Shown here piece by piece: positions 2,790-41,042 of a stretch of DNA of 60,740 bases. A model generated the notes under the pieces. The model saw nothing but the letters and a program-made list of their open reading frames with translations, was not told where the DNA came from and searched no databases. Position 1 is the first letter of the stretch. Every line of letters begins with the position of its first letter. A program made the position numbers and the translations under genes. Location of the stretch: NCBI GenBank assembly GCA_030605695.1, contig JAUWHX010000013.1, forward strand, positions 1 through 60,740, read 5' to 3'. Source of the DNA: a bacterium (GTDB taxonomy: Bacteria; Hydrothermota; UBA3073; JACQXS01).

Positions 2790-3643
2790 TTGTTAGTACC
2801 ATCTCTTTCAATAATAAAATAGCCATCTTTATCGTAACCTACAAAATACTCTCCATCTGGAGACCATTTAAAAGTGCCTCCAGTATTTATATCCAATGTA
2901 TCCACATTGTCTGTGCTTAAAGAAATAAGTCTTACCTTTCCGTTTAATCCATTGCCTATACCTATAGTATCTATTGCATCGCTCCAATCTGGAGACAATA
3001 CACGAGACAAAGTATAGTCCTTTATCAAGGCGCCCGACGTGTCTACAATTTTAGGCCCTGAGGAGTACACTATCTTTCCTCCATCGGGAGACCAGGCAGG
3101 ACTGCTACCATCTGAAACTATTTTATGGTCTTCACTTCCATCACTATTCATAATCCATAATCCTTGGTCAGGTTTTTGATAAACAAGTTTAGAAGCATCA
3201 AGTGAAAAATCAGGGTCTCGCCCGGAGCCAATTTCTTTTTTATTTGTTCCATCTCGCTTAATTACATACATCACAGGATAATGCTCTCCACGATTCCAAT
3301 CTTCTATACTAAATACTATCCAATCACCCGCACTTGATGAGCTAATTCCACCCAACTGAGGACCATAATCAAATGTATTTTCTTTAATTGTAGCAATTTT
3401 CTTAAGTCCTGAACCATCATTATTTATCTCATAAACTGTTATTTTTTCATTGCCTCCTGCTTGAGCATTACCTGTTATTGTCTTCTTTATTTTCTGCACA
3501 TGATAATGTTCTAAAAACACAATTTTCCCATCGGATGTCCAGTTAGGTGCTTGCCATACTGTGATTTTATCTTCCCACTGTTTTTGACAATTGCAACCAA
3601 ATAACATAGAAATCACAAGTGTACTTAGAAGAACCTTTTTCAT
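2771..3643 (-). CDS. TolB-like PD40 beta-propeller lipoprotein
   Basis: Lipobox LFGC, repeated WSPDG-type PD40 motifs, GGAGG RBS upstream. Confidence 0.65.
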   Translation of the reverse strand: MKKVLLSTLVISMLFGCNCQKQWEDKITVWQAPNWTSDGKIVFLEHYHVQKIKKTITGNAQAGGNEKITVYEINNDGSGLKKIATIKENTFDYGPQLGGISSSSAGDWIVFSIEDWNRGEHYPVMYVIKRDGTNKKEIGSGRDPDFSLDASKLVYQKPDQGLWIMNSDGSEDHKIVSDGSSPAWSPDGGKIVYSSGPKIVDTSGALIKDYTLSRVLSPDWSDAIDTIGIGNGLNGKVRLISLSTDNVDTLDINTGGTFKWSPDGEYFVGYDKDGYFIIERDGTNKWYLKP

Positions 3644-3668
3644 AATTTTACCTCCAATTTATTTAATA

Positions 3669-3697
3669 TGTGTCTATCTGCGTTCATCTGCGGTTAA
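3669..3697 (-). repeat. 29-nt intergenic motif TTAACCGCAGATGAACGCAGATAGACACA (copy 1 of 3)
   Basis: Near-identical copies at 15092-15120 and 23179-23207. Each lies just 3' of a stop codon, in the same orientation as the upstream gene. Confidence 0.7.
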
Positions 3698-3727
3698 TAC
3701 ATTGTTTGGAATTTGACATTCCTTATT

Positions 3728-4672
3728 CTAATGTCTAAAGTGTCTTGTGTGGGTGAGTATCATTGCAACTCCCTGCTCATTGCAAGCATCTATTACTTCC
3801 TGGTCTCTTATAGAGCCACCCGGCTGAACTATTGCCTGTATTCTTTCTTTTGCCGCAAGGTCAACCGAGTCTCTAAATGGAATAAACGCATCAGATGCTA
3901 TTACTTTTGGATTCTTCTCAAGAAGCCCGAAATCCTTCATATTCTTGAATGCAATCTCAAGTGACCCCACTCTATTAGGTTGCCCACAACCCATACCAAG
4001 TGTCATTTGGTCTGTGGTAATACACATTGCATTTGACTTCACAAACTTCACAACTCGGAACCCAAATTCCATCGCCTTGCGTTCCTTCTCTGATGGCTTT
4101 CTTTGAGTTACAACTTCCCATTTGGAGAAATCAGTTGGCTCAATATCACTGTCTTGCAATAATATTCCTCCATTTATCCATCTTAATGTGCGATGTGAAA
4201 GCTCTTTTTCCATAGGAAGTTGCAATACTACTACTTTCTTCTTTTTTGCCAATAATTCTTTTGCCTCGGGAGTATAACCTGGTGCAATTATTGCACTTAT
4301 GAATATTTTAGCAATCTCCTCTGCGGTAGCACTGTCCACCTCTCTATTGAATCCAACAATCCCTCCAAATGGAGAAACAGGGTCTCCAAGATACGCATTT
4401 TTATATGCCTCAACTATGTTATCATTTATGGCAATACCGCAAGGCGTAGCATGCTTCAAGATACAACAACAGGGTTCATCAAAACTCCGAATCACACTCA
4501 AAGTAGCATCAAGGTCAAAGAAATTATTAAATGAAATCTCCTGTCCTTGTAATTTCTTAGCATCAAGCAAAGAGAGCCCATTATATCCTATTTCTTTATA
4601 AACACCTGCACTCTGATGAGGGTTCTCACCATATCTCAAATCCATTACTTTTTCATAATTTAATTTCAACAT
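3728..4672 (-). CDS. purH: AICAR transformylase domain of PurH, encoded as a separate ORF
   Basis: MDLRYGENPHQ motif, 314 aa, own GGAGGAAAA-ATG ribosome-binding site. Confidence 0.88.
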   Translation of the reverse strand: MLKLNYEKVMDLRYGENPHQSAGVYKEIGYNGLSLLDAKKLQGQEISFNNFFDLDATLSVIRSFDEPCCCILKHATPCGIAINDNIVEAYKNAYLGDPVSPFGGIVGFNREVDSATAEEIAKIFISAIIAPGYTPEAKELLAKKKKVVVLQLPMEKELSHRTLRWINGGILLQDSDIEPTDFSKWEVVTQRKPSEKERKAMEFGFRVVKFVKSNAMCITTDQMTLGMGCGQPNRVGSLEIAFKNMKDFGLLEKNPKVIASDAFIPFRDSVDLAAKERIQAIVQPGGSIRDQEVIDACNEQGVAMILTHTRHFRH

Positions 4673-4696
4673 TTTTCCTCCAGCGTTGTATGGAAG

Positions 4697-5251
4697 TTAT
4701 TTCCCAGCAGTAAAGAAACTAACTATGCTTTCGTCAAATGAACTGGTTAATTTAAATGCTTCTTTTGCAAACTCAAACCTTGTTTGCTCTGAAATTTCGC
4801 CTTTCTTCTCAAACTCCTCAATAACTCTCTCATATTGCTCAGGATTAGTGATGCAAGTTACATATTTATAGTTCTTGGCAGTCGCCCGAATAAGAGTAAC
4901 TCCTCCTATATCAATGGTTTCAATTCCCGGAGAGTCCTTAAATGGATAAAGATTGCAAACAACAATATCAATCAGAGGAATATCAAGTTCTTTAAGTTCC
5001 TCCAGATGTTCTTCTATTCCTCTATTTGCAAGGATAGCACCAAGAATTTTAGGATGCAAAGTCTTTACCCTTCCTCCAAGAATTTCAGGAAACCCAGTAA
5101 CCTCTGACACAGTTTTACATTCTACTCCTTTGGATTTCAGGAATTTTTGAGTCCCAGAACTCGCGATAATTTGAAACCCAAATTCAGAGATTTTCCTGGC
5201 AAACTCTAAAATTCCAGTGCGGTCTGAAACACTGATAAGAGCATATTTCAT
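4697..5251 (-). CDS. purH: IMP cyclohydrolase (MGS-like) domain of PurH, encoded as a separate ORF
   Basis: 184 aa N-terminal PurH-like sequence ending in TAA. Same frame as the downstream ORF, 8 codons before its ATG. Confidence 0.85.
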   Translation of the reverse strand: MKYALISVSDRTGILEFARKISEFGFQIIASSGTQKFLKSKGVECKTVSEVTGFPEILGGRVKTLHPKILGAILANRGIEEHLEELKELDIPLIDIVVCNLYPFKDSPGIETIDIGGVTLIRATAKNYKYVTCITNPEQYERVIEEFEKKGEISEQTRFEFAKEAFKLTSSFDESIVSFFTAGK

Positions 5252-5322
5252 TGTAAAATATCTTCTCGTAAAATTTGCAACTTGTCAAGTCTAAAAGCAA
5301 TTTTATATTCGGACATACAGAG

Positions 5323-5420
5323 AATTAGAAATTTATGGAAATTAGTAGAAATTTAGTAGAAATTACTCTCTTGCTCCTACAAATTTCTATTAGTTTCTAC
5401 AAGTTTCTATCAATTTCTAT
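5323..5420. repeat. long imperfect inverted repeat built from TAGAAAT/ATTTCTA words (hairpin family A, copy 1)
   Basis: Left arm 5323-5365 and right arm 5378-5420. A related copy lies at 31123-31209, sharing tatggaaatt.gtagaaatt ... gctacaaatttctatta.tttcta. Confidence 0.7.
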
Positions 5421-6917
5421 CTATCTCAACTTTACAATCTTTGTTGGTTTACATCCCTGTGCTTTCAGAAAATAAATACCAGCTTTTAAGGTCTTACCAA
5501 TAGTTATTGGATTTTGATTTATCAGGTAACTTGAGATAAGTCTGCCAGAAAGGTCATAAATCTGGATACTTGCTTTCCTGGTAGCTTGTTCGCAGAATCC
5601 GTTGGAATAGCTCAATAGCTTTATAGCTGTCTTCTGAGTGAATGGATTAGGATATACCTCTACTTGCAACTTGTGACTTGTTACTTGTGGCTTGTGTTCT
5701 TCTATTCCAAAGTCCAATGGCTCACTCAAAAAGGGCTCATAATACACTATCCCCCTTGTAGAATCATCATAAAAGTCCCAGATTTTCATATCAATAGTAT
5801 CATTACTCGCTGTCCCCCAGTAATTATTCCGAGCATCTATATCAAAAGAAAAATTATTATACACGACGTAACCAATAGCATAAATGTTATTACTGTCAAT
5901 AAGTGCACTATCCGAACTTGTACCTATGTATATCGCAGATTCTGTTGTATCAGTTATAGTATTATACTTAATTGTAGGTGTACCATCATTACTATAGATG
6001 CTACCACCATAGTCAGCAGAGTTACCTGTAATTGTATTACTGGTTATTGTGGATGAACCATTACTATAGATACTACCACCACGATAATCTGCAGAGTTGC
6101 CGGTGATAGTATTGCCGATTATTGTAGCTGAACCAGAACTACAGATGCCACCACCATAGTCAGCAGAGTTACTTGTAATTGTATTATCGGTTATTGTGGG
6201 GAACCCACGAGTACAGATGCCACCACCATAAGAACTACCACCACCAGAATTTGCAGAGTTGCCGGTGATGGTGTTACCAGTTATTATAGGTGAACCAAGA
6301 AAACTCTTGATGCCACCGCCACCCCAATAAGCTGAGTTGTCTGCAATAGTATTGCCAGTTATTGTAGGTGAACTATAATAACTATTGATACCACCACCCC
6401 ACTCAGCATAGTTTCCTGTGATGATATTTCCAGTAATCATGAGTGAACCATAACTAAGAATGCCACCACCAAAATTAGCAGAGTTGTTAGAGATGATATT
6501 ATATTCTATCACCAGTAAGCTTGCAGTAGAATCAAATATAGCAGATTTTCCGGCATACTCAATTCTACAATAACATAGACTACCAGCAGATGCGTCTTTA
6601 AACCAGAGCCGAGACCATCTTTTTGTGGTATCCAGAGCACTTATCAGGATTGAATCACTCTCAATCCCAAGAGCATTTAGAGTTCCATATATCATTATAT
6701 ATTTCATTGAGTCCAGCCGAACCTCCACCCCGGGCTCAATTGTCAGGATAACCAACGAATCCACATATACATTTTCCTCAACAACATAAGGGCTGTTAGC
6801 TTTTGTCCACGCGGTATCTGATGTAATATGCCCACTCACATAAGTAGTATCTGCATATACCACGCTATGCGAGATGTTACCAATTATAGCAAACACTACA
6901 AACATAAATTGCTTCAT
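5421..6917 (-). CDS. secreted right-handed beta-helix repeat protein with T9SS C-terminal sorting domain
   Basis: Signal peptide, many ITGNTITGNSA repeats, C-terminal YPNPF...IYDLSGR...GIYFLK motif, AGGAGG RBS. Confidence 0.8.
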   Translation of the reverse strand: MKQFMFVVFAIIGNISHSVVYADTTYVSGHITSDTAWTKANSPYVVEENVYVDSLVILTIEPGVEVRLDSMKYIMIYGTLNALGIESDSILISALDTTKRWSRLWFKDASAGSLCYCRIEYAGKSAIFDSTASLLVIEYNIISNNSANFGGGILSYGSLMITGNIITGNYAEWGGGINSYYSSPTITGNTIADNSAYWGGGGIKSFLGSPIITGNTITGNSANSGGGSSYGGGICTRGFPTITDNTITSNSADYGGGICSSGSATIIGNTITGNSADYRGGSIYSNGSSTITSNTITGNSADYGGSIYSNDGTPTIKYNTITDTTESAIYIGTSSDSALIDSNNIYAIGYVVYNNFSFDIDARNNYWGTASNDTIDMKIWDFYDDSTRGIVYYEPFLSEPLDFGIEEHKPQVTSHKLQVEVYPNPFTQKTAIKLLSYSNGFCEQATRKASIQIYDLSGRLISSYLINQNPITIGKTLKAGIYFLKAQGCKPTKIVKLR

Positions 6918-8245: not shown

Positions 8246-9046
8246 TTACTTTATTGCATCTCTTAAAAGCTGAACGCCTGAAGAATCACCCAATAACATA
8301 AGAGAATGAGCGGCTTCAACTCTTACTTTCCAGCTTTTATCAAATAAACTTTCTTTTAAAATAGAGATAGCCGAAGAGTCGTCTATCTCACCAAGGGCTC
8401 TTGCAGCAGCAGCTCGAACATTAGAATTATCATTTTTTAAAGCATCTTTTAAAAGAGGAACAAATCTTTTATCCTTAAGCCCTCCAAGAGCTTCAATTGC
8501 AATCTTTTTTTCTTGAATATCAGCAGATAAAACACCATTCTTTAGTGTCCTGCGTGCAACTTGTTCTGGAGCACTTACATAAATACACCACCCAATCGTA
8601 CCTATTACTACAATTGCCCCTATGATTATCCACAATATTTTCATACCCTTTCGAGACTTATGAAGCATACTCCTTGCTTGAACAAGCTTAGGATTAATTT
8701 CCTCGGTAAGGCGAGGATTAAGTTTTATCACTTCTTCATATATATGGACGGCTTCGCTCCATTTGCAAGCAATAATAGCTTCTTCCCCCTCATTTATTTT
8801 ATCAATGATTACTTGCTCTTTGGAAGTTACACGTTCAAGATGTTCAAGAATCTTGTCCTGAGGCACCGGAAGTTCAAGTGCACGTTTATATTCTTCGGAT
8901 GCTTTTGCATATTCAAATTGGGCTTCAAATTCAAGCCCATTTTTTATAAATTCATTTACTTTCTCATACTCTTTGATATCCACACCACAGTTTCCACAAT
9001 AAGTCCAATCTTCTAATATATCGATTCCACAATAGAGGCACTTCAT
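8246..9046 (-). CDS. zinc-ribbon / coiled-coil / single-TM / HEAT-repeat protein
   Basis: N-terminal CxxC...CxxC ribbon (MKCLYCG...YCGNCG), one TM (ILWIIIGAIVVIGTIGW), C-terminal PBS-lyase-type HEAT repeats. Confidence 0.7.
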   Translation of the reverse strand: MKCLYCGIDILEDWTYCGNCGVDIKEYEKVNEFIKNGLEFEAQFEYAKASEEYKRALELPVPQDKILEHLERVTSKEQVIIDKINEGEEAIIACKWSEAVHIYEEVIKLNPRLTEEINPKLVQARSMLHKSRKGMKILWIIIGAIVVIGTIGWCIYVSAPEQVARRTLKNGVLSADIQEKKIAIEALGGLKDKRFVPLLKDALKNDNSNVRAAAARALGEIDDSSAISILKESLFDKSWKVRVEAAHSLMLLGDSSGVQLLRDAIK

Positions 9047-10164
9047 TATTTTACCTCCTTCTTAATTCTTAGTATGCTCTCCGAAGCGGCAATTCTTACT
9101 CTTGCATCAGTATCATTTTTCATCATATCTTCTAATACTGGAATAATACTTTTATCTCCAATTTTTCCAATAGCTTTTATTGCTTTGTATCTTATACCTC
9201 TACGAGAGTCCTTAATAGCATTCTTCAACTCACCTATGCCGGCTGGGTCTCCTGCCTCTGCCAATGCAATCGCTACTTTGAGTTTTTCATCTGCGGAGCC
9301 AGAAGCAAGTAATTTACGAAGAAGTGAAATACTCCTTTTATCTCCCATCTTCGCAAGTGTAAAAGCAGCTTCCCGACTCACACTACTTTCTTCGCTTCCA
9401 AGTAATCTCCTCAATGGAGGGATGGAAGTAACTCTTCCAACTCTTCCTAATGCTTGTATTGCTTTGATTTTTTCTCCAACCTCTTTCCCCTCAAGAGCTG
9501 AATGCAACACCTTTAATCCTTCTTCCTCACCTATCTTTGCAAGAGCTTCAGCTGCCTCACGTCTTACTGCAGGTTTCTTTTCTTTTAAGTTTTCTTTCAA
9601 AAGAGAAATTGAACTTTCTTCTTTTATCTCACCAAGAGTTTTAATGGCTGAAACTTTCATTGCCTCCCTTTCTTTTTTATTCAAAGAAAGAGGCGGTGGA
9701 GCAGTTCCTACACCTTCTTTTTCCGCAATTCTGATTTCTTCAAGCTCTAAACCTTTCTTTTTCTTGCCTTCCTTTCTTTTTCTTGCCAATTCAGCTCTTT
9801 GTTTAGCTCCCGAAGGCAATTCTTTAAGCAAAGGAGCAGGTGTTTCCATACGCTTTTCCAAAGTATCTCTTTCAAGTGAAATACCCCCCTTTTCTCCTCC
9901 AAACCGTGTAGATGCAATACCTTTAGTATAAACTTTCTTTCCCATAATATCCTCAGATAGAGTTTTCTCCTTTTGTGATTTTTCTTTCTTAAATGCTTTC
10001 TTTTTGGCCTTAACTTTACTCTTGAGCGATACAGTAGTATCGGACTTTTCCTTCTTGGATTTCTTTTTCTTGGATTCTTCCTTTGCCTCTAATGTAAAAG
10101 ATAGAAGACAGAAGACAAGAGACAAGAGACAGAAGACTTTTATTTTGCTGATTCTGTATCTCAT
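9046..10164 (-). CDS. secreted or anchored Lys-rich HEAT-repeat protein
   Basis: Signal-like N-terminus, KKKSKKEK-rich linker, about 6 HEAT-like repeats (ALG.IG...IP.L). Stop and start overlap the next gene by 1 nt. Confidence 0.7.
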   Translation of the reverse strand: MRYRISKIKVFCLLSLVFCLLSFTLEAKEESKKKKSKKEKSDTTVSLKSKVKAKKKAFKKEKSQKEKTLSEDIMGKKVYTKGIASTRFGGEKGGISLERDTLEKRMETPAPLLKELPSGAKQRAELARKRKEGKKKKGLELEEIRIAEKEGVGTAPPPLSLNKKEREAMKVSAIKTLGEIKEESSISLLKENLKEKKPAVRREAAEALAKIGEEEGLKVLHSALEGKEVGEKIKAIQALGRVGRVTSIPPLRRLLGSEESSVSREAAFTLAKMGDKRSISLLRKLLASGSADEKLKVAIALAEAGDPAGIGELKNAIKDSRRGIRYKAIKAIGKIGDKSIIPVLEDMMKNDTDARVRIAASESILRIKKEVK

Positions 10165-10183
10165 ATTGTATTTTCTTCTTTTA

Positions 10184-11746
10184 TTATATAAACTCGAAAA
10201 TCAATTTGCAAGTATTTAATTTCAAAATTTCATCTTTATCTTTTATCAGTTCTTTTAATACAGGCATAGCTTTTCTTTTACCACATTTAAGCATCACAAG
10301 ACCTGCATATAAACGTTCATACTTCTCTGTGGAATTTAATGCTTTTTCAACTTCTTCCATCACTGTTTTATCTTCAAGTTCCATCTTTGAAAGTGCTCCC
10401 CAACATCTTCTTCTTATAATATTTGCAGATGGACTAAATTCAACAATATCTTCATCTCCTCTTCTATTAATTATCCCCTTAGCAATATAAAATCCATTAA
10501 TTTCAGGTATTTCCTTAACTTTCATCATTGTTTGAGACTCACCATTCATAAATTCTTCCCACAGGATTCGAGATATAGCCACCGAGTCTTGCGGAGTTAA
10601 ATCAGTGCTAAATTCATTTAATAAAAAAGCAGTAAGAGCTCTTATATCAGTCGCAGAGTCCCAAAGCAAGTCTTTTACCAAAGGAACCCAACTTTCCTCA
10701 TGCCACCCCATCATCCTTTTATTTCCAAGTAAATATATGGCATATAATCCTTTAACTCTCTTCTCATACAATTCGCTCTTTAATATCTCTTCTATTGTTG
10801 GTATACCTACTGAATACCCTAAATTGAATAACAAAACTGCAGACGCTATCCTCAAACTTTCATTATTCTCATTCAAATAAACTACGAGTTCCGGAATAAT
10901 TGTAGTATCACCAAAATCTACCGCACACCAAGCTGCAGCAATTATAGAAGCTACACTCCTTTCTTCGTATATTATCTCGCTCAACTTTTTCACAGATTGA
11001 ACCTCACCAAGTCCAATCAAAGCTGATAAAGAATAAACTCTCTTTTTTTCATCGCCACTATTTGTAAGCACCTCAAGTACCGGAATACCAGTCTTATTTC
11101 CACGCCAACCTAATATAAGAGCGGATGAATTCTTTATCTCCAAATTCTCTGAACCTAAAAGTGTCTCAAGCCCTCTTTTTGCCATATAAGAAAGTGTATT
11201 AGTATATCCGAAAAAAGTGCCTACTAAACCAACAATAATTAAAATCCCAATTCCTAAACATATTTTTTTAAACTTCCATTTTAGATGAATTTCAACTAAC
11301 TTTAATTTATTCATTATATCTTCATCATTAGGAAGTAATTCCTGAACCTTGAGAAAGGATTTCTTTGCTCGCACAAGATGAGTTTTGAAATATTGCTCCC
11401 CCTTATATCGTTGTTCATCTATTATCTTTATCTTCTGAATTACGGCATCCAATAGTTTCGACGCCTCCTCAAGCATCACAGGAGGACCTTTTATCTCTTC
11501 GTACCGAGCTTTAGCTTCCTCGTATTTCCAACTTTGTTCAAGTTTCTTACCATCTTCTAAAAGTTTTTTGCCTTCTTCATATTGAGCTATATCAAGACCA
11601 CAAGACTCACAAATATCCTTAAGAAAAGGTATTTTTCGCTTGCAACCGGGGCACTCCTTAAGTAAAAGAGTTTCACAATAAATACAATATTTCACACCTT
11701 CAGGTAATTCCCGTTCGCACTTTGGACATCTTATCACTTTTTCCAT
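10184..11746 (-). CDS. double zinc-ribbon / coiled-coil / single-TM / HEAT-repeat protein
   Basis: CPKCERELPEGVKYCIYCE...CPGCKRK...CESCG ribbons, one TM (ICLGIGILIIVGLVGTFF), HEAT-like C-terminal half. Confidence 0.7.
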   Translation of the reverse strand: MEKVIRCPKCERELPEGVKYCIYCETLLLKECPGCKRKIPFLKDICESCGLDIAQYEEGKKLLEDGKKLEQSWKYEEAKARYEEIKGPPVMLEEASKLLDAVIQKIKIIDEQRYKGEQYFKTHLVRAKKSFLKVQELLPNDEDIMNKLKLVEIHLKWKFKKICLGIGILIIVGLVGTFFGYTNTLSYMAKRGLETLLGSENLEIKNSSALILGWRGNKTGIPVLEVLTNSGDEKKRVYSLSALIGLGEVQSVKKLSEIIYEERSVASIIAAAWCAVDFGDTTIIPELVVYLNENNESLRIASAVLLFNLGYSVGIPTIEEILKSELYEKRVKGLYAIYLLGNKRMMGWHEESWVPLVKDLLWDSATDIRALTAFLLNEFSTDLTPQDSVAISRILWEEFMNGESQTMMKVKEIPEINGFYIAKGIINRRGDEDIVEFSPSANIIRRRCWGALSKMELEDKTVMEEVEKALNSTEKYERLYAGLVMLKCGKRKAMPVLKELIKDKDEILKLNTCKLIFEFI

Positions 11747-34210: not shown

Positions 34211-35365
34211 TTATATGCTTCGGGGTTTAAGTAAATGGAGTCCAAGTTTCAGGAACCTTGGGCTGAAGGTGATGATATTCTTGATTATCTCAAGCTCGTT
34301 TATCTCGGTAATGGGCTTTCCCTCGAAGTTCTTGACTCCGAAATCAAACAGCAGTTCAAGGTCAGAATCCTTGAGCTTCATAAATACATCCCGCACCTTG
34401 AACTTGAATCTAAAATTCCTGCCCTCTGCTTTGAGCCATTCCTTTTCATATTGCTTGAGTTTAGAGATGTCATTGCTCTTGATTGCACTCGCACAAGATT
34501 TGCCTGCCAACTTGCCCGACAGCAATGCGTTCCCGATTCCGCCTCCTGAAATAGGGTCAACAAGTCGTGCCGCATCTCCAACTATGCAAACATTGTCCTT
34601 GACGAGATTCTTCAGGGCTTTGGACGGAGTTATACTATTGTGTGTGCTCAGGATACTGTATTTCTTGAATCTCCACTCAAGGAGCTTCTCAACGAAGAAC
34701 TTCGGGGGCTTCTTGGTAAGTGGAGGATAAACGCCCACACCCACATTCGCCAAGCCATCTCCTTTTGGAAACACCCATCCGTATCCACCGGGCGCAACTT
34801 CTCTGCCTGTCATAAACTCAACTTCCCCTAAGGTAACATCCACGCCTGCTAACAGATATTCATAAGCAGACCATAAATCCTTTCGCCCGATTCTTGCATC
34901 AATGCCTGCCCACTTTGCCACCCTTGAGCCAATGCCATCAGCCCCGACGATGAACTTTGCTTTGACCTCTCCCCTATTGGTTTGGATACCATTATCAGTG
35001 AGCCCGATTGCCTGAGTGCCGACTCTAACTTCACATCCAGCACTTGCAGCAAGAGCTGCCAGGTCGCGGTCGAATATCTTGCGCTCAAGTATATAGCCGA
35101 CTCCCGGATAGCTAACCTTGAAGCTTCTTCCTGAAGGAGAATAGAAACGAGCTCCCTCAATAGTGGAGGCAATCCAGGATGGTTTCGGAGTAACAAATTC
35201 CGATAGCCATTCCCTTGACATTCCTTCACCACAAGCCAATGGAATCCCAATCTCAAGATGCTCTTCAATCAAGATAGTCTTACACCCTTCCCGAGCGGCA
35301 GTTAAAGCAGTCATTGAGCCAGCAGGTCCCGCTCCCACAACTGCTATATCATACATTTCAGACAT
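34211..35365 (-). CDS. geranylgeranyl reductase-family FAD flavoprotein
   Basis: DIAVVGAGPAGS dinucleotide motif, 384 aa, family-typical length and layout. Confidence 0.8.
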   Translation of the reverse strand: MSEMYDIAVVGAGPAGSMTALTAAREGCKTILIEEHLEIGIPLACGEGMSREWLSEFVTPKPSWIASTIEGARFYSPSGRSFKVSYPGVGYILERKIFDRDLAALAASAGCEVRVGTQAIGLTDNGIQTNRGEVKAKFIVGADGIGSRVAKWAGIDARIGRKDLWSAYEYLLAGVDVTLGEVEFMTGREVAPGGYGWVFPKGDGLANVGVGVYPPLTKKPPKFFVEKLLEWRFKKYSILSTHNSITPSKALKNLVKDNVCIVGDAARLVDPISGGGIGNALLSGKLAGKSCASAIKSNDISKLKQYEKEWLKAEGRNFRFKFKVRDVFMKLKDSDLELLFDFGVKNFEGKPITEINELEIIKNIITFSPRFLKLGLHLLKPRSI

Positions 35366-35390
35366 AAGACTTTAGATAAGAGAAATTATA

Positions 35391-35492
35391 GACACGAACT
35401 ATCACGAACTTTTACGAACACTACACGAACAAGTTTCTTTGCTTTCATAGAAGTTCGTGTTTTGTTAGTCTTCGTTCGTGTGCTGTTCGTGT
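35391..35492. repeat. CACGAAC/GTTCGTG-word inverted repeat (family B, copy 2)
   Basis: Left arm 35391-35430 and right arm 35453-35492, with ctttcatag in the loop as at 15638. Confidence 0.6.
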
Positions 35493-35503
35493 TAAAATTC
35501 TTT

Positions 35504-36463
35504 TTACACAATTTCTATTTTCCCTATATTTGTGGTCTCGCCTATAATCCATTTTTCTTTAATTCCTTCAAATATGGATGGGTCATCTACAACTGCTATC
35601 ATCCCTATGCCCATATTGAAGACCCTGAACATTTCTTCTGTCTCGACATTCCCTTCTTGCTGGATAAACTTAAATATCGGCAGAACTTTCCAGAAGTCTT
35701 TATAAACTTTAGCTCCGATTCCTTGAGGCAAAGCTCTTGGCAGGTTGCCGTAAATACCTCCTCCTGTTATATGAGCAAGTCCTTTTATTTTCTTGAGGAA
35801 GGGAGTAAGCAAGTTCTTATAAGACTTATGTATTTTTAAAAGTTCCTTTCCAAGCTCACATCCTAACTCTTTAATATACATATTAAGTTTAAGTTTCTTG
35901 TCTTTTATAATTTTACGCACAAGTGAGTAACCATTTGTATGCAAGCCACTTGATGGAAATGCCACAAGCTTATCACCGGGAACTATGCTCTTGCCATCTA
36001 TTATATCAGATTTCTCAACTATCCCAGTGATAAAGCCAACAAGGTCATATTCTCCGAGAGCATAAAATCCAGGCATCTCTGCTGTCTCTCCTCCAAGAAG
36101 CGTAATCTTATTTTTACTGCAAGCTCTTGCAATTCCAGTTATTACTCCTTTTTGCTGTTCTATATTTAGCTTGCCAGTTCCTATATAATCCATAAAATAT
36201 AGGGGCAGTGCCCCAGTTGTTAAAATATCATTTATAGAGTGATTTACGAGGTCTTCTCCAACCGTGTCGTGAATCCCGAGCTCAATAGCAATCTTTAATT
36301 TTGTCCCTACTCCATCTGCCGAACTTATGAGACAGGGATTTTTATACCCAGAAGGAATCTCAAATATCCCTCCAAATCCGCCAATCTCCTTGCTCAACTT
36401 CTTAATGTATTCCGTGAATTTGTCAGCCGCCTCAATATCTACGCCTGCTTCTTTGTATTTCAT
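35504..36463 (-). CDS. purM: phosphoribosylformylglycinamidine cyclo-ligase (AIR synthetase)
   Basis: MKYKEAGVDIEAADKF start and SSADGVGTKLKIA motif. Confidence 0.93.
   Translation of the reverse strand: MKYKEAGVDIEAADKFTEYIKKLSKEIGGFGGIFEIPSGYKNPCLISSADGVGTKLKIAIELGIHDTVGEDLVNHSINDILTTGALPLYFMDYIGTGKLNIEQQKGVITGIARACSKNKITLLGGETAEMPGFYALGEYDLVGFITGIVEKSDIIDGKSIVPGDKLVAFPSSGLHTNGYSLVRKIIKDKKLKLNMYIKELGCELGKELLKIHKSYKNLLTPFLKKIKGLAHITGGGIYGNLPRALPQGIGAKVYKDFWKVLPIFKFIQQEGNVETEEMFRVFNMGIGMIAVVDDPSIFEGIKEKWIIGETTNIGKIEIV
36436..36462. repeat. 27-bp direct repeat, proximal copy (covers purM codons 1-9)
   Basis: tatctacgcctgcttctttgtatttca matches 38904-38930 at 26 of 27 positions. Confidence 0.9.
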
Positions 36464-36572
36464 AATGTTTTAAGAATACAATGTTAAGTCTTTTCCTAAC
36501 TTTATTTTTTCATATTCGAATTTCCTAATCGGATGTGAAATATAAAAATATTCTTTAAGTTCGTCCTATTTT

Positions 36573-37475
36573 TTATTCGAAAATCTCTAATAAAATTTCT
36601 TGTAAACGCCTGTCAATATTACCGTTAAAATCTTCACAGGGAATGCCTAAATTTCTAAGAACAGTTAGGAATCTCTTATAACCATTCTTACTTCTTAACT
36701 CAACCCATTCAATTCCTAAACTCGTTAATTGTTGCTTGTTCAAATCTGATAATTTATCTGCTATAAAAACTTTGCTATTCCTTGCTATCACAGCATCAGC
36801 ACTTTCAGGATTTCCTTTGCCCATCAATTTAACTTCACATCTAAATCTTTCTTGTGATTTTGTGTCTAAAAGATAAAAATCTACTTCTCTAAGTGACTCT
36901 GGTAATCGGCTTTGATCAAAATATTCACCTGAAACATTAAAAAGCATACAAAGGGTTCTCATAAGATATTTTTCTACCCTTTTCCCAGCAGTACTCCATA
37001 ACCCACCTCGTAATGCTGCCCTTTTTACTGCAAGTGTATTAATAACTATTAAACTTTCACTAACATTCAAATCTACACTAACTCCACGAAATTTTATTGT
37101 CAATGTTATGTTTATGTCGTCGTCACTTTCAACTAAACTATTTATTGCTTGATAAAGCATTTCGTAATGTTCTAAAGACGCATCTATCACGATTTCTTTG
37201 GTCGCAGAATTATACATGTTAGAGATTGTTTTCATGTTTAAGCCAGAGTTTATCGCAATATCTTCTTTAGATAGTTCAGGATTTAATAATTCCTTTTTAT
37301 ACCAATCAACTGAAACCTGTTGATTTTTCAACTTTGCTTCAACGACCTTTTTGAAAAAATCAATCGCGTATTGTAGAAATTCAGCATTAATAAGAGTCTG
37401 AATTTCAATGCGGTAGTCCTGTCCCTTAATCAACTTACAAATAATATTTTTGACAACTTTATCAGTTAATGTCAC
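36573..37475 (-). CDS. putative Type II restriction endonuclease (PD-(D/E)xK-like)
   Basis: EVDFYLL...RCEVKLMGKG fits a D...E-x-K catalytic pattern. Overlaps the methyltransferase stop by 4 nt. Confidence 0.55.
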   Translation of the reverse strand: MTLTDKVVKNIICKLIKGQDYRIEIQTLINAEFLQYAIDFFKKVVEAKLKNQQVSVDWYKKELLNPELSKEDIAINSGLNMKTISNMYNSATKEIVIDASLEHYEMLYQAINSLVESDDDINITLTIKFRGVSVDLNVSESLIVINTLAVKRAALRGGLWSTAGKRVEKYLMRTLCMLFNVSGEYFDQSRLPESLREVDFYLLDTKSQERFRCEVKLMGKGNPESADAVIARNSKVFIADKLSDLNKQQLTSLGIEWVELRSKNGYKRFLTVLRNLGIPCEDFNGNIDRRLQEILLEIFE

Positions 37476-38866
37476 CTAATCCTCCTTTTAGCTAATTCCT
37501 GAAAACTTTCTATATTCAATATATGCAGCTCTTCTTTGTCAAATAATAGTTTATTACCCAATTCCTGTTTTATCCTTTCAACATATCTTTCTTCTTTCTC
37601 AGTTAAAAAGAAATATCTCTCTAATTTCATTGCGGCTTTTCCTAATGTTCCACTACCAGCAAAGGGGTCAAAAACCAAATCTCCTTTATAAGAATAAAAT
37701 TTTATAACCCTATTGCATAATTCTATAGGGAAAACGGCACTATGAACTTTATCAAATGTAGGATCAATTTTCCATACATTTGAGGTTTCATAATCTCCCA
37801 AAACTTTACTTTGTTTAACTGTTCCCCAATTATATCGCCTGATATTCCAATCTAAAAGTTTGTCGGTTTTCTTCCTATAGACCATTATATATTCAGTTAA
37901 GGGATTTGGTTTATAGGCTAATGGTTTTCTGTGTTGTAAAAATCCTGCGTTACGGTTTTTAACACTTGCTTCCGGTTTTGCCCAGATTATATCATCAATA
38001 AATTCCCATCCCATTTGAACCAGATATGGATGAATGTCAAAAGGTATTGGATATCGTTTGCTTGAATGTTGCCTACTGATTCTTGGAATGATAACCGGTG
38101 AAGTATTTAGAATAAAAAATCTCCCTTCTTTTGTAATCCTATAAATTTGTTTGAATACACTCGCCAAAAAATCAAGGTATTTTTTATAACTTTGATATAT
38201 CGAATAATCTCTTGCATTATAATAAGGTGGAGATGTAAAAGTCAAATGAATAGATTCATCAGGGACATCTTTTAAAATATCTCTGACATCTCCCTGAACA
38301 ACAACATTTTTCATAAAATCAGGACATTTTGTATGCTTTATGCTTGAACCTGAAGTCATTTTTCGAGGAAAGAATTCCTTTTGAATCACAGACTGTATCA
38401 TTTCATTTGGGTGATTACTCAATTTTTTAAGTTCTTCTTTAACCATTATATTTGATTTAAAAACCAACAATGCACGGATAACTTGTAATACAATTTTAGG
38501 ATCTAAATCATTTAACATCTCTATTAGCAGTGGGATTGCTTTTGATGAGTGCATCCTACCAATGCTTGAAACAGCTTCTCGTCTTACCGTAGAATCCGGG
38601 TCATTTTTTGCAACTTTTGAAATTATTTCCAGATAAGAGGTGTCTCTTAACTTACCGAGATTTTTTACTACCCAGAATCTTACTTGAGCATTTCTGTTTT
38701 CAAGTAAAAAAGTGAGGTTTTTTCCATCAAAATCCGAAGGCAAACGACCAAGACTTTCCAGCAGAAATAAAAGTGTACTACCATTATCCTTTTGCTCCTG
38801 TATAAGTTTATATAACACTCCAATATTATTTATTTTTAATTCATTTATATATTCTCTTGTTACCAT
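37472..38866 (-). CDS. DNA methyltransferase (beta-class, TSPPY motif IV before FAGSGT motif I; probably N4-cytosine) with an N-terminal HEAT-repeat domain of about 170 aa
   Basis: HLTFTSPPYYNARDY, then DPFAGSGTLG. N-terminus has VRFWVVKNLGKL...DPDSTVRREAVSSIGRM...LNDLDPKIVLQVIRAL. Confidence 0.8.
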   Translation of the reverse strand: MVTREYINELKINNIGVLYKLIQEQKDNGSTLLFLLESLGRLPSDFDGKNLTFLLENRNAQVRFWVVKNLGKLRDTSYLEIISKVAKNDPDSTVRREAVSSIGRMHSSKAIPLLIEMLNDLDPKIVLQVIRALLVFKSNIMVKEELKKLSNHPNEMIQSVIQKEFFPRKMTSGSSIKHTKCPDFMKNVVVQGDVRDILKDVPDESIHLTFTSPPYYNARDYSIYQSYKKYLDFLASVFKQIYRITKEGRFFILNTSPVIIPRISRQHSSKRYPIPFDIHPYLVQMGWEFIDDIIWAKPEASVKNRNAGFLQHRKPLAYKPNPLTEYIMVYRKKTDKLLDWNIRRYNWGTVKQSKVLGDYETSNVWKIDPTFDKVHSAVFPIELCNRVIKFYSYKGDLVFDPFAGSGTLGKAAMKLERYFFLTEKEERYVERIKQELGNKLLFDKEELHILNIESFQELAKRRIR

Positions 38867-38903
38867 AATATTTCCAGGTAATTACAAAAGTCATTACCCA
38901 TTT

Positions 38904-38930
38904 TATCTACACCTGCTTCTTTGTATTTCA
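38904..38930. repeat. 27-bp direct repeat, distal copy (fossil purM 5' end; supplies the TGA stop of the JAB gene)
   Basis: tatctacacctgcttctttgtatttca. Confidence 0.9.
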
Positions 38931-39440
38931 GCGACTTAATCCTGTTGCACTTGGACATATTATTTTTACAGGTTTCCACTTATTTCTCCCAGACAAAATA
39001 TGAGCTCCAAGCTCAATCGCATATTCCCCTAAAGTTCCTTTTATAATGCCTTTTTTAGTATGATGCCAAGGAACATCTTTAGTTTTATCATTAACGGCTA
39101 CGATGAGATAAACATTACCAGACTCCATATCTGCAACATCTTCTCCTGAAGGAGTTGCCTTAGCTTTAGAGTCTCCCCACTGAGTATGAGAATGAAAATC
39201 ACCTATTAAATTAATTGGCATATGCTCAAGAATATTCTCCATTCGCTCGGAACTCCTTGATTTAGGAGCTACCCAAGAATATCCTTTAACTGCCGTCTGA
39301 TAAGGAATGCCATATTCAACTACAAAACCATCCATACTTCTATAACCAAGCAAAAGTCCAAGAGTTTCATGCCTATAGACTTCAATAGAAGATAAAATCA
39401 TAGACAGAAAAGCACGTTCTTTTATATGAACAGTCTTCAT
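38928..39440 (-). CDS. JAB/MPN-domain metalloprotease-like protein
   Basis: E (HETLGLLLGY) ... HSH ... SGED, a JAMM-like motif with a longer than usual spacer. 170 aa. Confidence 0.6.
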   Translation of the reverse strand: MKTVHIKERAFLSMILSSIEVYRHETLGLLLGYRSMDGFVVEYGIPYQTAVKGYSWVAPKSRSSERMENILEHMPINLIGDFHSHTQWGDSKAKATPSGEDVADMESGNVYLIVAVNDKTKDVPWHHTKKGIIKGTLGEYAIELGAHILSGRNKWKPVKIICPSATGLSR

Positions 39441-40016
39441 CTAAAACTTTACTCCTCCGGCAAAAACAAACTGACTCCAACTTCCTTCGTCTGGAAAGAT
39501 TACTCCCCAACCAACCTCACCAAAGAAAGTAGGACCTCTAATTGAGCATTCCATTCCTCCAAAAAGGTGAAATCCAATCCATGTATCTAACTCACTATTA
39601 GTTTCGCCATTAACTTTTACTTCTGCACTGCAAATATGGATTTCAGGGGCAGCCCCTGTATAAAATTCGATAGGAGAAAGTATATACCAAGTGTTCTTGT
39701 ATCCAAAATTCACTTTGATATCTCGTCCTGAAATTGTGATATGCACAATTTCTTCCCCTAAATCCCATATCTTTTCCTCCGTATGCCAACTGAATTCTAC
39801 TTCTGTTCTCAAGGCAAATGGTATCATAGGTAAAGGTAAAGAAAGTTCTATTAATCCTCCGATAATAGGCCAAGTCTCGGATTTCGAACTCCCATTATCA
39901 GAAGTATTGAACACCACTCCTCCTTTAAATCCAAAACGCGGTCTTTGAGCATCTGATGTCGCAAAATTCAGTCCTATTATACTAAAAACTAATACCCATT
40001 TCCTCAAACTCCACAT
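39441..40016 (-). CDS. small outer-membrane beta-barrel protein (paralog of 40446-41042)
   Basis: Signal peptide, alternating beta pattern, C-terminal GGVKF. Confidence 0.6.
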   Translation of the reverse strand: MWSLRKWVLVFSIIGLNFATSDAQRPRFGFKGGVVFNTSDNGSSKSETWPIIGGLIELSLPLPMIPFALRTEVEFSWHTEEKIWDLGEEIVHITISGRDIKVNFGYKNTWYILSPIEFYTGAAPEIHICSAEVKVNGETNSELDTWIGFHLFGGMECSIRGPTFFGEVGWGVIFPDEGSWSQFVFAGGVKF

Positions 40017-40064
40017 CTTAACCTCTTTCTTTCAATAAAATAGCAGAGAATACCAAAGAATCTC

Positions 40065-40415
40065 TTATTTCTTGGTAGTCTTTGTAGCTTTTGGCTTTGC
40101 AGCTTTTGGCTTCGTGACCTTTGGCTTTGTGACCTTTGGCTTTGTGGTCTTTGGTTCTTTCTTCAGTTCTTTTTTTGCTTTTTCTTTTACAGACTTTGCG
40201 AGCATTGACTTTTTACGAGCGGCGGTATTGAGATGAATTACTCCCTTTTTCCGTGCTCGGTCAATGGCAGAATAAGCTTTATCCAGATTCTCCTGTGTCT
40301 CAGATTTTTTCATATCCTTTATCGCACTCTTCATTTCAAGCTTAACCTTGCGATTCCTGAGTTTTCTTTTCTTATTCTGCCTCGCTCTCTTTATAGTTGA
40401 ACTATGTCGTAACAT
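40065..40415 (-). CDS. rpsT: 30S ribosomal protein S20 with Lys/Pro-rich C-terminal extension
   Basis: STIKRARQNKKRKLRNRKVKLEMKSAIK core, GGGAGG RBS, tail KPKVTKPKVTKPKAAKPKATK. Confidence 0.88.
   Translation of the reverse strand: MLRHSSTIKRARQNKKRKLRNRKVKLEMKSAIKDMKKSETQENLDKAYSAIDRARKKGVIHLNTAARKKSMLAKSVKEKAKKELKKEPKTTKPKVTKPKVTKPKAAKPKATKTTKK
40082..40156. repeat. 5 x 15-nt tandem repeat encoding the KPK(V/A)(T/A) pentapeptides of the S20 tail
   Basis: Hand-indexed units start at 40082, 40097, 40112, 40127 and 40142. Confidence 0.85.
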
Positions 40416-40445
40416 CTATCCCTCCCTTTTTAGATACTTTCTCAT

Positions 40446-41042
40446 CTAAAATCTTATTCCCAAAATAACCATTAACTGTGTCCATAAACGTTTCTCCTGA
40501 AAGACATCTCCTCTAAAGATTTTTCCTCCTCCAACCTCACAAAATAAAGCATATCCACTAATCAAGTATTCTCCTCCTCCAAAGAGATGTAAGCCGACTC
40601 CCATCTCAGAGTTATCAACAAGTGAATCAGGGTATTCTTCTTGAATCCAATAATAGTGTATGCCGGGACCTACTCCCACATAAATTCCTACACAAGAAGG
40701 TATTTCACCTCCATAAACACCTGCCGAAGAAGCTATCTCATAAAGATATTCAACTCCCAATCCTAATTGGATATCTACTTTTGTAGTTTTAATTTCTTCT
40801 TCCTTTTGATGAAAACCACCTCCCGCATCTCCCCTAAACCCAAAAGGGGAGTCTGGTAACTTATAGTCTAATATCACCCCAAAATTAGGCCAAATCTCAG
40901 ATTCTGACTCTTCACTAAAGGTTTGAAGCACTGCTCCTCCTTTGATTCCAAAAGAAACTTGAGCACTTGCTATTTCATAACTGCATAATATTATACCCAC
41001 AGCCAAAATATATTTTCTTAATATGAGTACCTTTTCCTCCAT
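40446..41042 (-). CDS. small outer-membrane beta-barrel protein
   Basis: Signal peptide, FGIKGGAV start similar to the FGFKGGVV of its paralog, C-terminal LGIRF. Confidence 0.6.
   Translation of the reverse strand: MEEKVLILRKYILAVGIILCSYEIASAQVSFGIKGGAVLQTFSEESESEIWPNFGVILDYKLPDSPFGFRGDAGGGFHQKEEEIKTTKVDIQLGLGVEYLYEIASSAGVYGGEIPSCVGIYVGVGPGIHYYWIQEEYPDSLVDNSEMGVGLHLFGGGEYLISGYALFCEVGGGKIFRGDVFQEKRLWTQLMVILGIRF

Follow-up and report, generated by a model that had tools for sequence, protein, structure and literature searches.

A restriction–modification gene pair probably inserted with target duplication between a JAB-family gene and purM in an uncultured WOR-3-lineage bacterium

Why should the first codons of purM occur twice in a bacterial chromosome, once at the head of the gene and once on the far side of a restriction–modification (R-M) gene pair? 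The question arises in a 60,740-nt stretch of DNA (contig JAUWHX010000013.1, hereafter the window) from the metagenome-assembled genome (MAG) of an uncultured WOR-3-lineage bacterium (G000; a 1.98-Mb assembly), where a DNA methyltransferase (MTase) gene, M, and a type II restriction endonuclease (REase) gene, R, separate a JAB/MPN-family gene from purM, all four on the minus strand (Table 1). A first-pass annotation of the sequence had proposed that the R-M pair is a discrete mobile unit that inserted with long target duplication. We addressed this proposal by comparing the locus with those of relatives, and it is supported by the empty sites found there, by the double alignment of one of these to the window, and by the composition of the insert. 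A foreign 2.44-kb segment carrying only the R-M pair very probably inserted at the JAB/purM junction, duplicating 27–28 bp of its target.

The two copies of the repeat, TATCTACGCCTGCTTCTTTGTATTTCA (proximal, at purM) and TATCTACACCTGCTTCTTTGTATTTCA (distal, at the JAB gene), are identical at 26 of 27 positions, with a single G/A difference, just as the first-pass annotation had described. When up to three mismatches were allowed, the 27-mer matched only these two sites in the window and nothing in 100 dinucleotide-preserving shuffles, and the entire assembly holds only these two copies, so the repeat occurs nowhere else in the genome. Read on the minus strand, the proximal copy starts at the second base of the purM ATG (36463–36461) and ends at the first base of codon 10, which makes its original description as purM codons 1–9 essentially right.

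When 61 related genomes were searched with the JAB protein, 32 had an orthologue, and the empty site with a single 27-mer that the annotation had envisaged was found in two close relatives. In a genome of the same genus (G002, GCA_030592575.1), the JAB gene leads directly into purM (...GGATTAAATCGATGAAATACAAAGAAGCAGGTGTAGATATTGAAGCGG), its TGA overlapping the purM ATG, and the 27-mer occurs once. A short ENA contig from a closer relative (L118; JAB 87% identical in amino acids and 89.7% in nucleotides) has the same empty site (...AAGTAGATGAAATACAAAGAAGCAGGCGTAGATATTGAAAC), again with one 27-mer and the ATGA overlap. purM also comes immediately after the JAB gene in G003 (same family), in G004, G006, G007, G008, and G009 (same order), and in L119. 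A pattern search found the 27-mer twice in G000 alone and a single time in each of G002, G006, and G008; relatives lacking the R-M genes yet carrying both copies, the outcome named beforehand as contrary to an insertion, were not seen. Contig C32 of G002 is collinear with window 45147–33433 over a 12-kb alignment, in which G002 8941–9484 aligns with window 39444–38904 and G002 9457–10417 aligns with window 36463–35503. The 28 nt at G002 9457–9484 thus align to both copies in the window, and this double mapping reads as the signature of a target duplication.

The comparison also refines the length of the duplicated segment and the history of its two copies. Because the A of the purM ATG precedes TGAAATAC in the empty sites and is retained in the proximal copy, the duplicated segment is most simply, and probably, 28 bp long (ATGAAATACAAAGAAGCAGGYGTAGATA), with the A included; the distal copy has C at this place (position 38931). 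Measured against the empty site of L118, the proximal copy has no change in its 28 nt, and the distal copy has two substitutions. One, A to C, turns CGA/AGA into CGC, which is synonymous in the JAB gene and converts the fossil ATG to CTG; the other is a C to T change at a Gly codon. Both would fit relaxed constraint on a fossil. The distal copy had been described as a fossil purM 5' end that now supplies the JAB stop codon; it is indeed a fossil and the TGA does lie within it, but the ATGA overlap of JAB stop and purM start is ancestral, so the stop was preserved rather than created by the duplication. With this junction as the target and the purM 5' end as the duplicated sequence, the JAB gene still ends in its stop codon and the start of purM is intact.

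Between the copies, the 2440-bp interval 36464–38903 consists of a 37-nt head, M, R, and a 109-nt tail, in the same orientation as the operon, and has no room for a further gene; the open reading frame (ORF) list and domain searches bear out the earlier statement that it holds only a PD-(D/E)xK ORF and a methyltransferase. Its GC content is 31.35% compared with 38.15% for the genome (z = −2.8; in the bottom 1.5% when ranked among 3560 genome windows of its own size), it ranks within the top 3.5% by tetranucleotide distance from the genome, and GC at third codon positions (GC3) is 0.25 in R and 0.23 in M. The impression, formed by eye, that the insert is more AT-rich than its flanks was therefore correct, the deviation being moderate, and its composition is not indistinguishable from that of its surroundings. 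A further claim, that the R-M genes lack the promoter layout of their neighbors, found no support: a sigma-70-type scan of 35300–40500 returned 16 sites compared with 18.1 ± 4.0 in shuffles, which gives no basis for contrasting insert and flanks. These data bear on the possibility that the R-M pair is ancestral at this site and that the “empty” sites arose by precise deletion between the 27-bp repeats. Direct repeats can mediate precise excision, and the R-M life-cycle hypothesis includes release via repeats; however, this history would need independent precise losses in L118, in G002, and in seven more distant lineages, the present distribution contains one filled lineage, and a compositionally foreign insert would have needed an original insertion with duplication anyway. 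We regard it as extremely unlikely.

We were also concerned that the arrangement could have been produced during assembly, with an R-M contig chimerically joined into JAB–purM through short shared sequence. The MAG is fragmented (93 contigs, 84% complete), and R-M pairs of this family are often found on isolated 2.4–2.9-kb contigs. However, the filled structure, including both repeat copies, recurs in an independently assembled Logan contig (SRR14876850_16157, 6257 bp), which is 99.97% identical over 3937 bp and reads omp2-like gene, S20, omp-like gene, JAB, M, R, purM. A second assembler thus gave the same junctions at k = 31, which exceeds the 27-bp repeat. In addition, the two copies differ by one base and are each flanked on either side by unique sequence, and a chimera would still need a purM fragment beside the R-M genes. 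We give an artefact next to no credence.

Table 1. Features of the JAB–M–R–purM locus, in window coordinates
Feature	Position	Strand	Description
purM (AIR synthase)	35504–36463	−	Intact, 319 aa; TIGR00878, 339 bits; AIRS and AIRS_C domains
Proximal repeat copy	36436–36462	−	Functional purM 5' end; reaches 36463 with the ATG's A included
Insert tail, 109 nt, orphan	36464–36572	−	Between REase stop and purM ATG
REase, type II, CfrBI family	36573–37475	−	300 aa; Pfam RE_CfrBI PF09516, 86.6 bits (cutoff 25)
DNA MTase	37472–38866	−	464 aa; N6_N4_Mtase PF01555, 135.8 bits; HEAT_2, 49.3 bits
Insert head, 37 nt	38867–38903	−	38895–38867, conserved unit core; 38903–38896 (8 nt), orphan filler
Distal repeat copy	38904–38930	−	Fossil purM 5' end; carries JAB stop TGA (38930–38928)
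JAB/MPN-family gene	38928–39440	−	170 aa; Prok-JAB, 26.9 bits (cutoff 25)

Insertion with long target duplication was reportedly first described by Nobusato et al. in 2000 for R-M genes of Helicobacter pylori. It was generalized by Furuta, Abe, and Kobayashi in 2010 (PMC2853133). Four of the five criteria used in that study describe the window locus: the insert encodes R and M homologues (RE_CfrBI and N6_N4_Mtase, above Pfam cutoffs); at 2440 bp it is smaller than 20 kb and has no other mobile-element genes; both repeats align to one sequence in a relative without the insert (G002 9457–9484); and the repeat is unique in the genome, so that this is not a chance insertion between dispersed repeats. 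As in the cases of Furuta et al., R and M alone are bracketed by direct repeats; the repeat is single in the relative without the insert; there is no transposase, integrase, or tRNA; the insert's GC content is below the genome average (theirs include a type II insert in H. influenzae at 32% compared with 38%; PMC2853133); and the repeats overlap the 3' end of a flanking gene. Unlike their cases, which come from proteobacteria, cyanobacteria, and actinobacteria, this one is in an uncultured WOR-3-lineage bacterium; its target is the ATGA stop/start overlap of coupled genes with both frames preserved, and the comparison is between species rather than within one.

The closest copy of the R-M pair provides a complementary view, because it lies elsewhere in the chromosome of the congener whose JAB/purM site is empty. 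In G002 (locus L034; R 90% and M 86% identical in amino acids, 88% nucleotide identity over window 38895–36565), the sister unit lies between pyrD and a gene for an ATP-synthase-alpha/beta-family ATPase (L034:4419–6932). The orthologous place in G000 (C68:2306–3145) is occupied by a 205-aa RQC/HRDC-domain ORF that resembles a free-standing RecQ C-terminus. The pyrD/ATPase intergenic site is thus a variable locus, and each of the two genomes is “empty” at the R-M site of the other. With its conserved pyrD/ATPase flanks, an unrelated ORF in G000, and no repeat, the G002 copy fits the “substitution” class of Furuta et al.; at the window locus, in contrast, nothing is replaced and the duplication is present. 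Identity at four-fold degenerate sites between G000 and G002 is 0.80 for R plus M (165 of 205) compared with 0.60–0.70 for seven core genes. By this measure the two R-M copies appear to have diverged after the species split, suggesting that they were exchanged horizontally rather than inherited vertically; vertical inheritance followed by relocation is less likely, given an R-M synonymous identity above that of the core genes. A third close copy, L036 (89% and 84% identical in amino acids), lies in a third setting, beside a dispersed repeat of G000. The DNA common to the three copies begins about 30 nt upstream of the M start and ends at the R stop, and no common end sequences or inverted repeats were found among the copies at the three sites. 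Taken together, these placements show that the R-M unit has moved from one chromosomal site to another within the genus. As a separate observation, the downstream flank of L036 (2463–2533) has GGACGCAGATAAACGCAGATAGAC..., which matches many G000 contigs (e.g., C70:15870–15940 and window 3671–3692); it belongs to a dispersed repeat family common to these relatives.

How might such a segment have entered the chromosome? At the insert ends we found no terminal inverted repeats, ORFs and domain searches revealed no recombinase gene or tRNA inside or adjoining the insert, and an Rfam scan of the region, including the tail, gave no match. The duplication is far longer than transposase-type duplications, and the repeat is neither tRNA- nor att-like. 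The hallmarks of insertion sequences, transposons, and integrative elements (inverted repeats or att sites, a recombinase, a short fixed duplication) are absent from the locus. The earlier assertion that no transposase or integrase was involved holds for the insert and its borders but does not extend to a recombinase acting in trans. Under that alternative, the segment would be a non-autonomous element, and the repeat would be either an att-like site or a target-site duplication of unusual length. The sequence alone is compatible with this, and the same caveat applies to other R-M units in Furuta et al. (PMC2853133). In addition to the missing inverted repeats, recombinase, and tRNA, however, the repeated sequence is ordinary coding DNA that is single in relatives, the sister copies share no ends beyond those just described, and the repeats at other loci of the family are unrelated to this one in sequence and length. 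We consider mobilization in trans very unlikely.

The 109-nt tail raises a different alternative. It is AT-rich and takes the place of the native upstream sequence of purM; neither it nor the 8-nt filler has homology to L034, L036, 80 other R-M loci, or the rest of the genome. AGGA is positioned 9–10 nt before the purM ATG in G002, and likewise in the fossil copy; no Shine-Dalgarno sequence is visible before the purM ATG in the tail. In naturally transformable bacteria, homology-facilitated illegitimate recombination can bring in foreign DNA that lies beside a homologous anchor, without a dedicated recombinase, and can duplicate short stretches of the target. By this or a Campbell-type route, donor DNA already consisting of R-M plus a 5' segment of purM would have recombined at one end by homology within purM and been joined illegitimately at the other end 27 nt inside the recipient purM, with no staggered cuts. 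The final structure would be identical, the orphan tail could be the donor's native purM leader, and donors could exist, given that sister R-M copies circulate among close relatives. Against this, the anchor donor was not found, R-M directly upstream of purM being seen in no other genome; purM, whose product is 85% identical to its G002 orthologue, has no mosaic step in identity along the gene; the proximal 28 nt are identical to those of the nearest relative, L118; and the route presupposes an earlier insertion beside purM. We judge it quite unlikely and favor direct insertion of the R-M segment with duplication of its target.

Several observations weigh against direct insertion with long target duplication. 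At 27–28 bp, the duplication falls 2–3 bp short of the >30-bp screening cutoff with which Furuta et al. excluded site-specific recombination, a process of which this locus gives no hint, and is shorter than the 46–423 bp of the duplications that they listed (PMC2853133). No direct repeat flanks the G002 sister copy, and the R-M unit can therefore be present at a site without a duplication. Neither a donor nor a source homology for the 109-nt tail was found. Exact-protein look-ups of R, M, purM, and JAB identified no empty allele from the same population (the one other assembly, SRR14876850, is filled), and a degenerate junction pattern fitting filled and empty sites alike had 0 matches in JGI metagenome contigs; the insertion is therefore polarized by comparison between species only.

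With these points in mind, we reconstruct the event as follows. A foreign 2.44-kb DNA carrying only the M–R pair entered the chromosome of this WOR-3/Stahlbacteria-related bacterium and landed exactly where the JAB stop overlaps the purM start, and 27–28 bp of the target, the 5' end of purM, were duplicated, leaving one copy on each side. The joining would most likely have involved either two single-strand breaks staggered by about 28 nt, followed by end-joining of the linear fragment and fill-in, or replicative template switching; both routes would need host repair functions only, possibly triggered by DNA breakage, and no recombinase encoded by the element. The upstream copy has since decayed to a fossil through the ATG to CTG change and the one further substitution. 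Translational coupling of purM to JAB, together with its native upstream sequence, would have been replaced by the 109-nt orphan leader, and transcription of purM presumably now passes through the R-M genes or follows them; no intrinsic terminator was predicted on the coding strand within the insert, and read-through is plausible.

Is this unit bracketed by repeats elsewhere? Homologues are abundant: more than 4600 of the REase, with full-length match, and more than 5600 of the MTase, with the same HEAT-plus-MTase architecture, and at least 580 genomes, bacterial and archaeal, encode a relative in one-genome-per-species data. A match is found in only 6 of 272 genomes of the phylum. The best 80 loci encode proteins with 63–76% identity, except for the G002 copy at 90%, and essentially all of those from other genomes have M followed by R. 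Their bacterial hosts are Bacteroidota, Ignavibacteria, Chloroflexota, Planctomycetota, Cyanobacteria, several proteobacterial classes, Nitrospirota, Cloacimonadota, and Patescibacteria; the archaeal hosts are Methanosarcinales, Woesearchaeota, Pacearchaeota, and Altiarchaeales. We compared the 350-nt zones on each side of M–R in 45 loci (44 of the family plus the window), scoring repeats at ≥15, and used comparisons displaced by 900 nt within the same loci as controls (n = 135). Flanking repeats were detected in 7 of 45 loci and in 3 of 135 controls (Fisher p = 0.003). They are thus frequent but not obligatory in the family, as they are in R-M systems generally (PMC2853133).

Two of these loci illustrate how varied the arrangements are. 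At L098, from a UBP11 bacterium, a 36/37 direct repeat at 2161–2197 and 4532–4568 brackets the R-M genes; the repeated sequence is made up of the ribosome-binding site and initial five codons of M itself, recurring 72 nt after the R stop, and may be the remnant of a tandem or circularly permuted form. No empty site was identified for L098 with the flanking protein chosen, which is a multi-paralogue domain, and there is no close relative. At L115, from a Dehalococcoidia MAG (3074–6743), a helix-turn-helix controller-like gene is followed by a 98-aa N-terminal MTase fragment, then by M–R, and then by a 170-aa MTase remainder. Fragment and remainder overlap in the region of motif I (29/33 nt; roughly 75% across 75 nt). 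This could represent either insertion into, or recombination at, a resident MTase gene, and is ambiguous.

About a quarter of the 80 loci are contigs shorter than 4.1 kb that hold little beyond M–R, many of them 2.4–2.9 kb long (including L046, L051, L054, L056, L063, and L093); one, of 2573 bp, comes from Thermoflexibacter ruber DSM 9560, an isolate. Such short contigs suggest that assemblies break at the unit borders, because of variable context or flanking repeats. A circular or plasmid form was considered and rejected, as none of 21 short R-M contigs (1.7–4.0 kb) has a terminal overlap. Phages were likewise rejected as the usual vehicle: a relative occurs in only 1 of 2.9 million IMG/VR contigs, L117 (IMGVR_UViG_3300028840_000732), with an REase 68% identical.

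The REase begins with GTG behind a GGAGG, overlaps the MTase stop by 4 nt, and matches PF09516 over profile positions 3–256 of 257 (E = 2e-24); its D199, E214, and K216, a PD-(D/E)xK-type triad, are invariant in 30 homologues. In the MTase, HEAT repeats form the N-terminal domain and a beta-class N4/N6 MTase domain comes after them, with SPPY before FDPFAGSGT. The HEAT domain (about residues 50–165) is kept in all close homologues across phyla. CfrBI itself, from Citrobacter freundii, recognizes CCWWGG, and its system methylates to m4C. The pair found here resembles the CfrBI system in its full-length RE_CfrBI match, its triad-bearing REase, and an adjacent cognate MTase, likewise of the N4/N6 beta class with SPPY, in a two-gene unit; it may differ in the N-terminal HEAT-repeat domain of its MTase. 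The match is at the level of the family only, and CCWWGG is here a candidate recognition site. CCWWGG occurs in the genome at 0.71–0.74 of expectation, a mild under-representation, and is not among the most avoided sites; palindrome avoidance is thus uninformative about specificity.

Beyond the R-M pair, the surroundings have peculiarities of their own. Between the purM stop and the start of a geranylgeranyl-reductase gene (window 35380–35500), four ACGAAC hexamers are followed by four GTTCGT hexamers, forming one large imperfect palindrome with the look of an operator array. On either side of the ribosomal protein S20 gene lie paralogous genes (39441–40016, 191 aa, and 40446–41042, 198 aa), whose products have about 30% protein identity, signal-peptide-like N-termini, and no Pfam match. 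The collinear G002 contig lacks both, its mpg, S20, and JAB genes being adjacent; the 12-kb syntenic block therefore holds several lineage-specific indels besides the R-M pair.

We conclude that the window locus is a clean new example of a known, transposase-free route of R-M insertion, and as such it leaves current concepts unchanged. With a filled site, two empty sites, and a sister copy elsewhere in a congener, it is direct evidence, drawn from comparison, that an R-M pair on its own acts as a mobile unit in a candidate phylum that only metagenomes have revealed. Insertion at a 4-nt stop/start overlap, with a duplication that let both host genes survive, illustrates how selection filters such events. 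The presence of relatives in at least 580 genomes of both prokaryotic domains, together with the enrichment of flanking repeats, makes the family a tractable set for studying recombinase-independent gene mobility. A bolder idea, which we rate as a long shot, is that the pair of HEAT-MTase and CfrBI-like REase constitutes a self-sufficient mobile element that re-inserts through DNA breakage and host repair only, across bacteria, candidate phyla radiation (CPR) bacteria, and archaea. If true, such an element would leave direct repeats of variable length, 27–28 bp here, 37 bp at L098, and shorter elsewhere; and the family, being abundant and often repeat-bracketed, could serve as a natural data set for testing the proposed virus-like R-M life cycle of insertion with duplication, amplification, and release.

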